Source: a virus
Taxonomy: Duplodnaviria; Heunggongvirae; Uroviricota; Caudoviricetes
Length of the DNA stretch: 27,279 bases
Direction: 5' to 3' (one strand)
IMG/VR virus record: IMGVR_UViG_2541047774_000009
This document shows, one piece after another, positions 1-17,400 of the stretch; within the stretch, counting starts at the first letter, position 1, and every line of letters starts with the position of its first letter. The translations under genes were made by a program, and so were the position numbers. The notes under the pieces are model-generated. The model ran no database searches. It saw nothing but the letters and a program-made list of their open reading frames with translations, and was not told the DNA's origin.

Positions 1-3053
<3,053 letters not shown>

Positions 3054-3079
<26 letters not shown>

Positions 3080-3599
3080 TCAGCAACCCCGGTATCAGTT
3101 CATCCAGCGCGGCTGCTTTGTTCATGGCTTTGATGATATCCCGTTTCAGGAAATCAACATGTCGGTTTTCCAGTTCCGGAAAACGCCGCTGCACCGACAG
3201 GGGGATCCCGTCGAGAATACTGGCAATTTCACCTGCGATCCGCGACAACACGAAAGTACAGAATGCGGTTTCCACCACTTCAGCGGAGTCTCTGGCATTC
3301 TTCAGTTCCTGTGCGTCGGCCTGCGCACGCGTAAGTCGATGGCGTTCGTACTCAATAGTCCCTGGCTGGAGATCTGCCTCGCTGGCCTGCCGCAGTTCTT
3401 CAACCTCCCGGCGCAGCTTTTCGTTCTCAATTTCAGCATCCCTTTCGGCATACCATTTTATGACGGCGGCAGAGTCATAAAGCACCTCATTACCCTTGCC
3501 ACCGCCTCGCAGAACGGGCATTCCCTGTTCCTGCCAGTTCTGAATGGTACGGATACTCGCACCGAAAATGTCAGCCAGCTGCTTTTTGTTGACTTCCAT
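3054..3599 (-). CDS. Nu1: Terminase small subunit Nu1 (181 aa)
   Basis: Translation MEVNKKQLADIFGASIRTIQNWQEQGMPVLRGGGKGNEVLYDSAAVIKWYAERDAEIENEKLRREVEEL matches lambda Nu1; located immediately downstream of cos. Confidence 0.95.
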
Positions 3600-3776
3600 T
3601 GTTCATTCCACGGACAAAAACAGAGAAAGGAAACGACAGAGGCCAAAAAGCTCGCTTTCAGCACCTGTCGTTTCCTTTCTTTTCAGGGGGTATTTTAAAT
3701 AAAAACATTAAGTTACGACGAAGAAGAACGGAAACACCTTAAACCGGAAAATTTTCATAAATAGCGAAAACCCGCG

Positions 3777-3788
3777 AGGTCGCCGCCC
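3777..3788 (-). other. cosN cohesive-end sequence (12 nt); cosB lies between here and Nu1 start (3600-3776)
   Basis: Reverse complement of 3777-3788 is GGGCGGCGACCT, the lambda 5' cohesive end; reverse complement of 3600-3790 reproduces the lambda left-end sequence (GGGCGGCGACCTCGCGGGTTTTCGCTATTTATGAAAATTTTCCGG...). Confidence 0.85.
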
Positions 3789-3937
3789 CGTAGCCTGTTG
3801 GATCGCCGGAAAGGACCCGAAAAACGAGAATAATTATCACTTACAGCAAGAATCGAATCTGATCTATTATGGTGCTTGCTATTATGTGCCGGCACAAGTG
3901 CGTCGTTTACCGTCATTTCACACAGAGGCATCATCAA

Positions 3938-4189
3938 ATGAAAATCAGAAATATTCTCGCTATCTCCCTTGCAACATCATCCTTCAGTTGCCTGGCATTT
4001 AAATCCTCGCCCAATGTGCTACCAGGACCAACGAATCAACTAACTGCGGTAGAAAGTAAAATTATCGGACATTTTTATGCCCCACACAGTGCATTACCCG
4101 GAACAACCATCACAGGGACATGTGACGCCTCCCCCGTCCCGGGATGCACCTGTCCGTTTTGTACTATGCTGCGTAGCCAAAACCGATAA
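3938..4189 (+). CDS. Hypothetical small secreted protein (83 aa) with N-terminal signal peptide and Cys-rich C-terminus
   Basis: Internal ATG of track ORF 3869..4189; product MKIRNILAISLATSSFSCLAFK... has a hydrophobic signal-like N-terminus and CDASPVPGCTCPFC near the C-terminus; no family recognised. Confidence 0.3.
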   Translation: MKIRNILAISLATSSFSCLAFKSSPNVLPGPTNQLTAVESKIIGHFYAPHSALPGTTITGTCDASPVPGCTCPFCTMLRSQNR

Positions 4190-4552
4190 CATCCGCATTT
4201 ACCTGGTATTCCATGATGAGTTCACGCAGCGACTGATAGAGGAAGGAAAGATGGTTAGCAAAAGCAAGGCGCATTGCCGCCGCATGCTGCAGGCATTGCA
4301 ACAGACGAGAGCAGGTATTTTTGACCAGTTGGAAAACTGCCAGCATACTTTGCCCGAGTATATCGCCATCTCATCGGAAACCAGTGCAACTCTTATTCAT
4401 CGGGTTCCACTAGAGAAAAAGAAGAAATGAACAGTGAGGCGTTGTGTGGCATACAACGCCTTCTTCCATCATTCCTCGTCAGCCATGACAAAAATATAAC
4501 CGCTGGCTCTTTCATTTTTCTCCTGCTTCCAGCCCCTCTCTACCTGGAAGCA

Positions 4553-4879
4553 TCAGGGACGTGACGGCGTAAAGATAAATTGTCTCTTCACTCCCTGACA
4601 GGGACGATTCTTTTCAAATCGCCATTTCGCCATGGCCTTCACCACTTCATCACGAAACAAATTATGAGGCTCTGAGCGGAGAAAAACGATCCGTGTCACA
4701 GTCCCATCAGCACCAATATCGAACTTAACCTCAACCAGCCCCTTGATATAATTTGCTGCAGCATATTCCGGATATCGTGGATACACCGTCACTAATTGCC
4801 GGGGCTCATCAGCTTTTTGCTGCGAGCATCCCACTGCTAGGACAGATAACAGAAAAAGTAGTAAAAGGCGTCTTTTCAT
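4553..4879 (-). CDS. Lipoprotein with TonB C-terminal-like domain (108 aa)
   Basis: Start at internal ATG 4877-4879 with AGGA upstream; N-terminus MKRRLLLLFLLSVLAVGCSQQ (signal peptide plus lipobox LAVGC); C-terminal segment YIKGLVEVKFDIGADGTVTRIVFLRSEPHNLFRDEVVKAMAKWRFE resembles TonB C-terminal fold. Confidence 0.5.
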   Translation of the reverse strand: MKRRLLLLFLLSVLAVGCSQQKADEPRQLVTVYPRYPEYAAANYIKGLVEVKFDIGADGTVTRIVFLRSEPHNLFRDEVVKAMAKWRFEKNRPCQGVKRQFIFTPSRP

Positions 4880-5359
4880 TTTTATTCCTACGGGTCTTAT
4901 TCTGACAATATATCCTGTGTTCCAGACTGCCACATCACCACATCCTGTGCCATTATCTGACTCACATTACATACATCGCATCGGGATACAGTAGTAGCAC
5001 TTTCTGTAATACAGCTTCCGGTTTCTTCCACCATCGCACCGGGATAAATCCGCGAATCATTAACGCGGTAAAAACCCGGTGTGCATCGTTTTTAATTATT
5101 CCCGCACACTCACGCAGAAGGAATTCCCCGTCGGGCTACGGTCATGGTTAATGCGGGAATACGGCGACGATACAGCGCAGCTAAAAGGGTAATGGACGGA
5201 TAGACCGGTTTATTTCATTCTACAGGATTCTGAGTGTCCCCAACTCCCTCCAATCGTCTGAGCTCACCTGTGTAGTTTTAATTTTCATCAATCCATTTAA
5301 CTATCGTTTAATTGTTGTCACATAGGATTCTGCCGTTTTTAACAATGCAGGATAATAAG

Positions 5360-5653
5360 ATGAAAAAAATGTTGTTTTCTGCCGCTCTGGCAATGCTTAT
5401 TACAGGATGTGCTCAACAGACGTTTACTGTTGGAAACAAACCGACAGCAGTAACACCAAAGGAAACCATCACCCATCATTTCTTCGTTTCGGGAATTGGG
5501 CAGAAGAAAACTGTCGATGCAGCAAAAATTTGTGGTGGTGCAGAAAATGTGGTTAAAACAGAAACCCAGCAAACATTCGTAAATGGATTGCTCGGTTTCA
5601 TCACTTTTGGCATTTATACTCCGCTGGAAGCGCGGGTGTATTGCTCAAAATAA
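5360..5653 (+). CDS. bor: Bor lipoprotein (serum-resistance outer-membrane lipoprotein, 97 aa)
   Basis: MKKMLFSAALAMLITGCAQQTFTVGNKPTAVTPKETITHHFFVSGIGQKKTVDAAKICGGAENVVKTETQQTFVNGLLGFITFGIYTPLEARVYCSK closely matches lambda Bor; oriented opposite to lysis genes as in lambda. Confidence 0.9.
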   Translation: MKKMLFSAALAMLITGCAQQTFTVGNKPTAVTPKETITHHFFVSGIGQKKTVDAAKICGGAENVVKTETQQTFVNGLLGFITFGIYTPLEARVYCSK

Positions 5654-5684: not shown

Positions 5685-6146
5685 CTATCTGCACTGCTCA
5701 TTAATATACTTCTGGGTTCCTTCCAGTTGTTTTTGCATAGTGATCAGCCTCTCTCTGAGGGTGAAATAATCCCGTTCAGCGGTGTCTGCCAGTCGGGGGG
5801 AGGCTGCATTATCCACGCCGGAGGCGGTGGTGGCTTCACGCACTGACTGACAGACTGCTTTGATGTGCAACCGACGACGACCAGCGGCAACATCATCACG
5901 CAGAGCATCATTTTCAGCTTTCGCATCAGCTAACTCCTTCGTGTATTTTGCATCGAGCGCAGCAACATCACGCTGACGCATCTGCATGTCAGTAATTGCC
6001 GCGTTCGCCAGCTTCAGTTCTCTGGCATTTTTGTCGCGCAGGGCTTTGTAGGCGATTGCGTTATCACGGTAATGATTAACAGCCCATGACAGGCAGACGA
6101 TGATGCAGATAACCAGAGCATAAATAATCGCGGCGACTCTGCTCAC
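5685..6146 (-). CDS. Rz: Rz i-spanin (153 aa, GTG start overlapping R stop)
   Basis: Translation from GTG at 6144-6146: (M)[59 protein letters not shown]... matches lambda Rz. Confidence 0.9.
5744..5926 (-). CDS. Rz1: Rz1 o-spanin lipoprotein (60 aa), embedded in Rz in +1 frame
   Basis: [60 protein letters not shown], lipobox VVGC and Pro-rich tract, near-identical to lambda Rz1; entirely inside Rz. Confidence 0.9.
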
Positions 6147-6676
6147 TGATCTATCCCCCAACAGGCTAATGCGCTTTCCTGGTCACGACGAATAACCTGT
6201 CCATAGCAGTTATTTGAACGTATGCGGCAATCGCGCCCACCATCTTTTATCCACCAGCGAATCGCCTCGCATGCACCTTTACGATCACCGGCATTCAGCC
6301 GCTTATAAAACGTCGACGGGAAACACTTACCGGGGCCAATGTTATAGGGACAAAATGACGCGATACCCGCTTTCTGTGGTTCGGTCAGTGGCACTTTAAT
6401 ATTGCGCTCCACCCATGCCAGCGCCTTATCCCGTTCAATGGCGTTAACCTGGTCGCATTTTTCCTTCGACAGTTTCATACCGGGAACAACGGGTTTTCCA
6501 TCCACCACCGTGGCACCCCGACAGATGGTCCAGATGCCGGAACCATCGCGGTATGCCGTTGTGTGGTTACCTTCTTTTTCATCCAGAAACTGGTCGAGAA
6601 TATCAGGCGCAGGCGCACCGACGGCAATCAGTGCCAGAACGGCAGCCGACAGGCCGTATCTGATTTTTGCGTTCAT
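6143..6676 (-). CDS. R: SAR endolysin (GH24 T4-lysozyme-like, 177 aa)
   Basis: N-terminal signal-arrest-release segment [16 protein letters not shown] followed by catalytic E-x8-D-x5-T triad ([16 protein letters not shown]); matches P21/933W-type R rather than lambda transglycosylase. Confidence 0.9.
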
Positions 6677-6781
6677 GGATATTTATCAGGATTTATCGGT
6701 TTCTGAACCCTGGATATGTTTATCTGTCCCGGCCTGTTGAATCAGGCAAGGAATAGTTAAATACAATAGAGAGGATTGTTT

Positions 6782-7054
6782 ATGGACAATAGCACCATTT
6801 CTCTACAGGAGTTGCTCGACTGCATTTCCAGGCTTCGGGATGATGTAAATGCCCTTACTGTCGCATTTTCATATCTGGCATTCTCAATTCCCAAGGAACA
6901 AATGCAACCAACACTGGCATCGCTCCAGCTTGAATCAATCAATCCCAAATGGTCCCAGCAACAACAAAATTCTTTCAAGTGGCTGGCGGTATTACTGGAG
7001 GAAAAATATGCTGGTGAAATTACCATTTCGGCGGAGTCTTCAGTGAACCAGTAA
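6782..7054 (+). CDS. Hypothetical small protein (90 aa), antisense to the lysis operon
   Basis: ATG at 6782 preceded by GAGAGGA (6767-6773); occupies a 343-nt gap between the DUF1327-like gene and R; 3' end overlaps DUF1327-like gene on the opposite strand by 35 nt; no family recognised. Confidence 0.35.
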   Translation: MDNSTISLQELLDCISRLRDDVNALTVAFSYLAFSIPKEQMQPTLASLQLESINPKWSQQQQNSFKWLAVLLEEKYAGEITISAESSVNQ

Positions 7055-7364
7055 TTCTTCCCGGCAGTTTTCCTTTGTAGGTTATCCACACACTCTGCGC
7101 CTCTAAAATTATGGGGCGCTTTTCCGGCGACTGCTCATCCCCTCCACATAACCCGGCAGCAACATCCAGGAAGACCTGTCTGATGCTCCTTCTGGCTGCT
7201 GCCTCATAAAACTCCAGCGCGGCACCTTCAACACGGTCCAGCGAGATGTCCAGGTCAAAAATTTCACCGTCAAAGCGTTCTTTGTCCTGTAATGCTAAAG
7301 TTACCGTAACTTTATTCTCAAAATTGCGGATCCCTTTCACAATCATTTCATAGTTTTGGACCAT
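7020..7364 (-). CDS. DUF1327-family phage protein (YdfR-like, 114 aa)
   Basis: MVQNYEMIVKGIRNFENKVTVTLALQDKERFDGEIFDL...; AGGAG RBS; sits between holin and endolysin as ydfR does in Qin-type prophages; start 4 nt after holin stop. Confidence 0.6.
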   Translation of the reverse strand: MVQNYEMIVKGIRNFENKVTVTLALQDKERFDGEIFDLDISLDRVEGAALEFYEAAARRSIRQVFLDVAAGLCGGDEQSPEKRPIILEAQSVWITYKGKLPGRITGSLKTPPKW

Positions 7365-7368
7365 TATA

Positions 7369-7584
7369 TTACTCTCCTCTCGCAGCCTTTCTTCTGTCTT
7401 CTCTGATTTTGAAGTACAGATTCGTCAGATAAGTCAGAAAGCCCAGAACCAGACTTCCCAGTACACCAATCGCAGCCCACTGAGACGGACTAACCTGATC
7501 AAGCCATTGTAAAAACCAGTAGCCAGCACTGCCTGCGGAGGTGCCGTAGGCAATGCCTGTTGATATTTTTTCCATCTGATACAT
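7369..7584 (-). CDS. S: Class II holin/pinholin, S21/EssD-like (71 aa) with dual-start motif
   Basis: [71 protein letters not shown] matches S21/EssD family; two in-frame ATGs (7584 and 7575) 3 codons apart; paired with SAR endolysin. Confidence 0.85.
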
Positions 7585-7693
7585 ATCCCGCCCCAACAGA
7601 CCTGTGCTACCGGAAAGAAAAAAGGCCATCAGCAAAACTCTGATGGCCTGAATCACCTTTACCAGTCATGTATGAAAAAATACGCACAACCAA

Positions 7694-8077: not shown

Positions 8078-8081
8078 ATCC

Positions 8082-8107
8082 AAAAAATACCCCTCCGGAG
8101 AGGGGTA
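8082..8107 (-). terminator. Minus-strand intrinsic terminator (candidate tR'-like)
   Basis: Perfect 8-bp stem TACCCCTC/GAGGGGTA (8088-8095/8100-8107) with 4-nt loop, followed on the minus strand by a U6 run (plus-strand AAAAAA 8082-8087). Confidence 0.5.
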
Positions 8108-8396
8108 TCATACAAGGGGATGACCATGATGCATGGTGCCGGGTGCCTCCCGGTGAGTCCGGCATCAGCATACGAACCCGCGATTATCCCAGAACTGACT
8201 GCTGATTCGCCCCGCCGCTTAGGGGGATTCACCATGCGTTTTTTTATTTACAAACTCTTCGCCAGACAAACAACCATTAACTGGCTGAATTGTGAGGTAT
8301 TTCAATTTTTAGAAAACTGACCAACCTCCGCTTATACGCCGGGCATGGAGCGGATACAAAAAAGCCCCGCAAAAGCAGATCAGAAGGATTCGTTGT

Positions 8397-16571: not shown

Positions 16572-17400
16572 GACGATGCCCTCCGCTGATATTCAGGAGA
16601 CGGTGAATATGAAAATTAGCCTTATCCGCCAGACGAATACGTTCAGCTTGCAAGTTAAGAAGGGTTTCTACCAGAACCTGATGTGCCTGCGGATCCGAAA
16701 GAGTTACCTTGCGCAGAGCACGTAGTGCAGTTGTTACATAACTGAGTTTATGTAAGTCTTCATCATTCAGACGAGTGAGGGCTGGGACAGTAGCCATGAT
16801 GGCAGCCTCCGTATGCAATGGATAACTTCCACCACCGGAAACGCCAATTTCGCTGGTGGTGAACTGAGCAGGGTTGGCGTAACCGGCGCATACGGAAACC
16901 GGCGCACCTTTCGGTGCCCCCACCCAGCCCACCATAATTTGGGTATAGCTGAGTTGTAGCAACAAAAAAGACGCTAACGCGCCAATTGTCGCCGTATGCA
17001 ATTCCAGGACGCCAATCCCGGCACCCGCTTTATAAGGTGCCTGAACAGTGTAACGTCCCGGAATGGCAGAATCAATGTGCTGGTGGTCCTTCACACTCAA
17101 CAAAATCACGCCTGAATTTCCACAAAGGGCTAAAGCACTCATGCGGGTAGTCTTTGCGAAGATAGATAACGCGCTGTGTTTCTGGCTCCCAACGAATAAC
17201 ATGAACATAAAGTCCTCTTCCGTCACGAAACCAGCGGTTAAGTTCCTGCACAACTCGCCCCCCACAGTCAGGTAAAGTTCTCTGTGGTTACTTACAGCCA
17301 GGAGATTTGGTAATCTGCATTCATGCCGTAACAACAGGTGTTCAGCGACGCTGACCACCAGCTGTTGCGACAAACGGTTATTTGCCGTTAAACTGTTCAT
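16564..17400 (-). CDS. Hypothetical protein (278 aa)
   Basis: Long ORF tightly packed in early-right operon with ATGA overlap to upstream gene; no family recognised. Confidence 0.5.
   Translation of the reverse strand: MNSLTANNRLSQQLVVSVAEHLLLRHECRLPNLLAVSNHRELYLTVGGELCRNLTAGFVTEEDFMFMLFVGSQKHSALSIFAKTTRMSALALCGNSGVILLSVKDHQHIDSAIPGRYTVQAPYKAGAGIGVLELHTATIGALASFLLLQLSYTQIMVGWVGAPKGAPVSVCAGYANPAQFTTSEIGVSGGGSYPLHTEAAIMATVPALTRLNDEDLHKLSYVTTALRALRKVTLSDPQAHQVLVETLLNLQAERIRLADKANFHIHRLLNISGGHRHA

Follow-up and report, generated by a model that had tools for sequence, protein, structure and literature searches.

The locus described here raises a simple question: what is a small gene doing in reverse orientation inside a phage lysis cassette, and does it act on lysis? 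The window, by which we mean the entire analyzed stretch of 27,279 nucleotides, contains a typical lambdoid lysis region on its minus strand between positions 5300 and 7700. This region includes the gene for a P21-type class II holin S (7369-7584; 71 amino acids, aa; assigned by Pfam, with an MYQM dual-start motif), a ydfR-like gene (7020-7364; 114 aa; Pfam DUF1327), the endolysin gene R (6143-6676; 177 aa; Pfam Phage_lysozyme), Rz (5685-6146; likewise recognized by Pfam), and Rz1 (5744-5926). A bor/iss lipoprotein gene (5360-5653; Pfam Bor) is located on the plus strand. The ydfR stop codon and the R start codon are separated by a 343-nt gap (6677-7019), in which a plus-strand open reading frame (ORF) of 90 codons opens (6782-7054, with the stop codon at 7052-7054). 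PGAP and phage annotations place its start at the ATG at 6782; in a program-made list of ORFs, it begins with a TTG at 6776. A Shine-Dalgarno sequence, GAGAGGA (6769-6775, plus strand), lies 6 nt 5' of the ATG, and its AGGA was kept in all six aligned Escherichia coli variants. The ORF and ydfR are convergent and overlap by 35 nt at their 3' ends (7020-7054), the last 11 codons and the stop codon of one being antisense to the last 11 codons and the stop codon of the other. The overlapping stretch is ydfR sequence, which was also found in phages that lack the rest of the insert. Thus, the layout matches that given in the initial annotation, which had described an opposite-strand 90-codon ORF in a 343-nt gap, with a Shine-Dalgarno sequence and an overlap with the 3' end of the DUF1327-like gene.

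The ORF is already present in public collections, where its function is unassigned. Its product is RefSeq WP_000370549.1, a "hypothetical protein" encoded next to a "YdfR family protein"; it is a member of PHROG 2411 (E = 3.5e-59, residues 1-90 aligning to positions 1-90 of the 90-position profile); and its exact sequence occurs on about 1000 contigs under the UniRef name Ybl58. A literature search for ybl58, WP_000370549, or the ORF returned nothing relevant. At the curated thresholds of Pfam and NCBIfam, no family matched the ORF protein, and scans of 12 family members against these two libraries produced scattered noise only (E of at least 0.017). The PADLOC defense HMMs did not match the ORF protein and gave one marginal hit among the 12 family members (E = 0.0049). 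No known RNA family was detected by an Rfam scan of positions 6600-7100.

Is the ORF a gene? When 5426 complete E. coli genomes were searched, 1139 of them (~21%) contained the cassette DNA, mostly as one copy per genome. We recovered 24 distinct homologous DNA copies with 82-100% identity, every one of which was 273 nt long, with zero indels among them. The initial annotation had named a lack of frame conservation among homologous inserts as the outcome that would speak against its proposal; the plus frame proved to be conserved among these 24 copies. It was open in 21 of them, including all divergent copies sampled, and the other three, which are near-identical, each carried one premature stop codon. 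Overall, about 3% of sampled ORF copies had nonsense mutations, and several database clusters of the ORF were frameshifted into the +1 frame. Pooled pairwise dN/dS, computed over 79 non-overlapping codons in the 24 distinct DNA versions, was 0.33 for the plus frame; of the five other frames, four gave values of about 1. Variable columns were enriched at codon position 3 (45 versus 27 and 20 at the other two positions; chi-square P = 0.004). Judging from these substitution patterns, the ORF is under moderately strong purifying selection at the protein level.

The one other frame with a low dN/dS (0.21) belongs to a minus-strand ORF of 110 codons (6757-7089). This ORF could in principle be the real gene and the plus-strand ORF its shadow, in which case it would serve as a frameshifted C-terminal extension of ydfR or as a separate late gene. 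The minus frame is open throughout the region in the window and its close relatives, and variable C-terminal extensions do occur in DUF1327 proteins. However, it is interrupted by one or two stop codons in each of the five most divergent copies and by one in a close relative (locus L079), so that 6 of the 24 distinct copies are disrupted. Moreover, it is not in frame with ydfR, and it is the plus-frame protein that is matched by PHROG 2411, by the homologs in databases, and by the remote relatives. The low dN/dS of the minus frame is best explained as a mirror effect, since the two frames have their wobble positions in common. We thus rejected the antisense ORF as a true gene and consider this model extremely improbable.

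An exhaustive profile search combined with a second, word-indexed search revealed homologs of 81-97 aa with 30-64% identity in Citrobacter, many species of Serratia, Chania, Gibbsiella, Chimaeribacter, Sodalis, and Acerihabitans. Residues Y31, L32, and E51 were invariant in these proteins, and the AFSYLAF core was conserved. The Citrobacter homolog also matched PHROG 2411 (E = 1.5e-33). In the libraries that we queried, the link between PHROG 2411 and the chromosomal homologs of Serratia, Sodalis, and other genera, as well as the members at other prophage positions, was unrecorded; this family relationship, drawn from the profile searches, is an addition of the present analysis.

The surroundings of the homologs varied. 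In some prophages, R was swapped for another holin/M15-peptidase set or for IS66 (the latter in Stx prophages), and the ORF was still found beside DUF1327 and holin genes. In a Citrobacter prophage, a 64%-identical homolog was convergent with a gene encoding a 238-aa protein that, by BLAST, has only the C-terminal tail KITGSLRVPMKL in common with E. coli YdfR. (The N terminus of this protein, encoded at 2739-3455 on the minus strand of Citrobacter meridianamericanus locus L086, looks remotely DUF1327-like by eye, with a ...CGG motif; the apparent plan of DUF1327 proteins is a conserved N-terminal domain and a short conserved tail with a variable part between them.) One distant homolog was located inside a tail operon, on the opposite strand between genes L and M. 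Another was found on the opposite strand between the Rz and terminase genes, which is the position of bor in phage lambda. In Serratia-type chromosomes, the homolog is flanked by dinI and bssS, with rne and a gene for a pyrC-like amidohydrolase nearby, and the Sodalis ligni homolog occupies an ordinary chromosomal neighborhood. The convergent neighbors of the distant homologs were related neither to DUF1327 nor to one another, and we therefore discarded the idea that the family has a conserved convergent partner. Since members reside in a tail operon, in an Rz-terminase interval, and on chromosomes, the function of the family does not appear to be tied to lysis.

The ORF is predicted to encode an acidic protein of 10.2 kDa (pI 4.4). 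No transmembrane segment was detected in it (maximum 19-residue hydropathy of 0.88), and its N terminus bears no resemblance to a signal peptide; the protein is thus predicted to be cytoplasmic and soluble. Two AlphaFold2 runs, which used alignments of 18 and 29 rows, returned the same model with a mean pLDDT of 80-81. The model is a three-helix bundle (helices 8-34/35, 38-52, and 59-76) followed by a disordered tail at residues 80-90. The tail is the part encoded in the overlap with ydfR, and its predicted disorder would explain why the 35-nt overlap is tolerated. Leucines 11, 18, 25, and 32 form a heptad, suggestive of a coiled coil or a dimer interface, and the core motif of the protein reads AFSYLAF...ES.N. 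By analogy with other small helical proteins of phages, the most likely mode of action of the product would be binding to a protein of the host or the phage rather than that of an enzyme or a membrane protein. Foldseek searches with two models against PDB and with one against BFVD yielded nothing better than E = 0.7. A sequence-profile search of PDB returned a sole match, E. coli YibL (PDB 2LF0), at a nonsignificant E value of 0.44. Both proteins are helical, but the similarity found no Foldseek support either, and we treated it as noise.

Could the functional product be a cis-antisense RNA that contains the ORF by chance, or could the locus be a decaying, functionless remnant? The ORF is convergent with ydfR and overlaps it, its protein has no known family or fold match, and constraint on it is only moderate, with some copies truncated or frameshifted as described above. 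A noncoding or decaying locus would, however, hardly be expected to keep its frame, with not one indel, among 24 distinct sequences whose nucleotide identity falls as low as 82%, nor to have protein homologs that, at 30-45% identity and in unrelated contexts, retain the hydrophobic core residues. The helical fold was predicted confidently and reproducibly, the gene is present in about one-fifth of complete E. coli genomes, and no Rfam family covers it. We regard the distant homologs as the strongest evidence that the ORF is a gene. As far as can be judged from them and from the conservation of the frame, the RNA-only and remnant models are contradicted, as is the minus-strand model; we hold an antisense RNA or a remnant to be highly unlikely.

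We next consider the insert as a DNA segment. The initial annotation had suggested a comparison with related prophage lysis cassettes, and this comparison revealed a clean presence/absence difference of ~273 bp. In alignments with collinear phages, the optional cassette spans positions 6747-7019, with its edges defined to within a few nucleotides. It is present in phages Chlobot and 783R2 and absent from vB_EcoS-611R1 and many others. The right break falls directly after the YdfR residues ...ITGSLKTPP, so that YdfR ends in ...TPPKW* here (114 aa) and in ...TPPESQP* in the absence of the cassette (116 aa). The left break precedes the R start codon by ~70 nt. This codon and the ~45 nt next to it on the upstream side are conserved with and without the cassette, and the translation initiation region of R is thus left untouched. 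The lambdoid lysis cassette can therefore tolerate an antisense gene: R initiation is preserved, and the change to YdfR is confined to its final few residues. The G+C content of the cassette is 43-44%, compared with 51-53% for R and about 49-50% for most of ydfR. No direct repeats, terminal inverted repeats, or target-site duplication were found in the flanks of the 273-bp cassette. The lack of flanking direct and terminal inverted repeats speaks against insertion of a mobile element; a likelier route is cassette exchange by recombination within the conserved flanks. The boundaries of the cassette are newly defined in this analysis.

How common is the insert among related lysis regions? We examined 80 IMG/VR prophage loci that were chosen solely by a close YdfR N-terminal domain, a sample biased toward relatives of the window. 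The slot between ydfR and R was empty in 49 loci, in which YdfR was 116 aa long and the ydfR-R gap was 63 bp (as measured in 47 of them). It was filled by the ORF (phrog_2411) in 25 loci, with a 114-aa YdfR and a 343-bp gap (measured in 24). A gene for an 86-aa protein (phrog_2572) occupied the slot in four loci, accompanied by a YdfR of 154 or 183 aa and gaps of 319-409 bp, and a gene for a 104-aa protein (phrog_1853) occupied it in two loci with a YdfR of 268 aa and a 452-bp gap. The initial annotation had stated that holin, DUF1327, and endolysin genes are normally contiguous. This holds for the compact 63-bp junction, the most frequent arrangement, but the insert is no rarity: with 25 filled and 49 compact loci out of 80, it is a common allele.

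The two other occupants share the position of the ORF, its convergence with ydfR, its approximate size and, in some cases, an overlap with the 3' end of ydfR (53 nt in one instance). They differ from it in accompanying longer forms of YdfR (154-268 aa) and in lacking detectable homology to it; hhalign comparisons of the ORF family with the two occupants gave probabilities of 1.1% and 0.1%, and we rejected a common ancestry of the three. The gene of phrog_2572 is found in phages PhiR5_1 and PhiR63_1, and that of phrog_1853 is found in Stx2 phage 86. The slot gene of PhiR63_1 is missing from the annotation of its GenBank record; occupant coordinates in the loci that we compared include 1186-1446 in L094, 1688-1948 in L004, and 1206-1520 in L095. 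Given that two unrelated small convergent genes share the slot with the ORF, the ydfR-R junction is a multi-allelic cassette site, a property that the present analysis adds to the description of this locus.

Does the ORF act on lysis? The initial annotation had offered two roles, a tiny moron or a regulator of lysis. Known regulators of lysis, such as the antiholins lambda S107, phage 21 S21-71, T4 RI, and P1 LydB, share their transcripts with the lysis genes; they are holin isoforms or proteins of the membrane or periplasm. The ORF resembles them in its site inside the lysis cassette. It differs from them in being located on the opposite strand, in having a predicted soluble product devoid of membrane or periplasmic features, and in belonging to a family that also occurs away from lysis genes, which leaves neither cotranscription nor a steady linkage to lysis. 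No similarity of the ORF protein to holins, antiholins, or any known family was found.

A modulator of a less conventional kind might still be envisaged, in which the protein or the convergent transcript tunes the expression or activity of YdfR, holin, or endolysin. The protein might bind YdfR, or RNA-RNA pairing or transcriptional interference might operate across the 35-nt overlap. The setting of the ORF, within the lysis cassette and across the 3' end of ydfR, invites such a model, and its linkage to DUF1327-type genes persists where R was swapped and in Citrobacter, in which a DUF1327-type 3' end is still linked to it although the rest of the gene has diverged beyond recognition by BLAST. 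In addition, all slot occupants are convergent with ydfR, and each is accompanied by its own C-terminal form of YdfR. This last association is trivial, however, because the form of YdfR is set by where the cassette joins. YdfR of E. coli K-12 reportedly binds RNA and RNase E's catalytic domain (PMC13232886), which makes a posttranscriptional theme conceivable. On the other side, 49 of the 80 cassettes (61%), with a YdfR N-terminal domain at least 91% identical and the same R, have an empty slot and manage without any partner. The 114-aa YdfR found here and the partner-free 116-aa form differ only in their last few residues, and the distant family members in tail operons and chromosomes have no DUF1327 or lysis genes nearby. 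Thus, the ORF and ydfR do not behave as a two-gene module, and only a loose association, exemplified by Citrobacter, remains. We consider a role in lysis unlikely, while granting it some weight because of the persistent DUF1327 linkage and the report on YdfR and RNase E.

The other role fits better. The concept of morons is reportedly due to Hendrix, Juhala, and colleagues. The lambdoid examples, bor and lom of lambda, encode envelope proteins or lipoproteins with demonstrated expression in lysogens and demonstrated phenotypes. Like these genes, the ORF is small and may be autonomous, is optional between otherwise adjacent genes (a 273-bp indel relative to 611R1, with 25 filled and 49 empty loci in the census), and differs from its flanks in base composition (G+C of 0.43-0.44 versus 0.51-0.53 in R). 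Unlike Bor and Lom, its product is a predicted soluble, acidic, helical protein. The bor gene of the window offers a local parallel: it is likewise directed against the late operon, as a second moron 1.1 kb away. The best reading of the ORF is thus an ordinary moron-type accessory gene of the phage rather than a regulator of lysis. Of the two roles originally proposed, the moron is favored by the optional, opposite-strand cassette, its lower G+C content, and purifying selection, and the regulator is disfavored by the lack of a transmembrane segment or signal peptide, the lack of likeness to holins and antiholins, and the homologs in nonlysis contexts. We put at about 0.62 the probability that the ORF is a true protein-coding gene that stands on its own and acts as an accessory cassette of the moron type. 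The gene would reside in the lysis cassette because the junction tolerates cassettes and not because it acts on lysis; the lysis cassette would then be one permissive landing site for the family.

Because the ORF is oriented against the late operon, it should require a promoter of its own. Its transcription would most likely take place in the lysogen, as long as the late operon is silent; once the prophage is induced, late transcription under Q antitermination would override it. A strict consensus scan upstream of the ORF returned no plus-strand promoter. A lenient weight-matrix scan returned two plus-strand candidates, both within the top 0.1% of scores in the window. The sigma-70-like candidate at 6737-6767 (TTGAAT-19 nt-TACAAT; 10.9 bits) has a nonoptimal 19-nt spacer, and the start predicted from it falls inside the Shine-Dalgarno sequence. 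The second candidate, at 6692-6720 (TTTATC-17 nt-TATGTT; 6.8 bits), would produce a leader of about 55 nt, and both of its hexamers are identical in all six aligned E. coli variants. At the left edge of the cassette, we also observed a plus-strand palindrome, GCCTG-N6-CAGGC (6732-6747), whose loop contains the -35 element of the first of these candidates; it is kept in six E. coli variants with wobble-type changes and could be an operator or merely a recombination joint.

Downstream of the ORF, on the plus strand and antisense to ydfR, a weak hairpin (7097-7123) consists of a 7-bp stem, GCGCCUC/GGGGCGC, and a 9-nt loop. With the UUUU that comes after it, the hairpin might terminate the plus-strand transcript. 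Folding of the whole region was no better than that of shuffled sequences (z = -0.11), and with a weak hairpin and a fold at the level of shuffles, we did not accept an intrinsic terminator 3' of the ORF.

Taken by itself, the ORF matters little: it is one more uncharacterized prophage accessory gene that annotation pipelines already call. Its value lies in its abundance, with roughly one in five complete E. coli genomes carrying it, and in marking a well-defined cassette exchange slot at the ydfR-R junction, which could serve in searches for additional small effectors of prophages. The conserved chromosomal relative in Serratia provides a tractable route to function. A broader reading would combine these elements. 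Ybl58/PHROG 2411 would be an unrecognized group of small three-helix regulators of Enterobacterales, represented in Serratia and related genera by a conserved chromosomal gene beside dinI, an SOS gene, and captured repeatedly by temperate phages. The phage copies, antisense in late operons, would reprogram host stress, SOS, or RNA decay pathways or exclude competing phages, and the 3' end of ydfR would be a dedicated hotspot for the exchange of small effectors, with three or more cassettes of unrelated sequence. Taken jointly, these proposals are speculative, and we think it quite unlikely that all of them hold. Neither the ORF nor its Serratia homolog is preceded by a LexA/SOS box (CTGT-N8-ACAG) that was recognizable by eye; in the Serratia-type chromosomal locus L104, where the homolog region spans 3638-4730, the only good box is the clear LexA box of dinI at 3600-3616.

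Several features of the related prophages and of the window deserve mention. The ORF also occurs in the lysis regions of Stx phages. In Stx-converting prophages (loci L092 and L096), it is located a few hundred base pairs downstream of stxAB, and another small opposite-strand gene, encoding a PmrD/IraM-like anti-adaptor, is found between stx and the holin gene. The holin S of the window starts with MYQMEK..., a two-methionine dual-start motif comparable to that of the holin/antiholin pair of phage 21 S, and is annotated by some as a 68-aa form (locus L090) and by others as the 71-aa form. Just 5' of the holin gene, at 7623-7649 on the minus strand, lies a strong intrinsic-terminator-like hairpin that has six G-C pairs in its 10-bp stem and a T-run after it. 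The structure is reminiscent of a tR'-type terminator, through which Q antitermination would pass. Further upstream, between the methyltransferase/Q region and the holin gene, Rfam matched the STnc100 small RNA at 8078-8266 on the minus strand (114.5 bits; E = 1.2e-24), which is probably part of the late-promoter leader of the prophage. A gene for a TonB-family protein (4553-4933, minus strand) lies between Rz and the terminase gene. Finally, a C4 antisense RNA (16852-16939, minus strand; Rfam, 80.7 bits) adjoins an IsrK Hfq-binding RNA (16964-17040, minus strand; 61.2 bits), and the pair constitutes an immunity/antirepressor control module in the c4-ant style of P1 and P7 within a lambdoid prophage.
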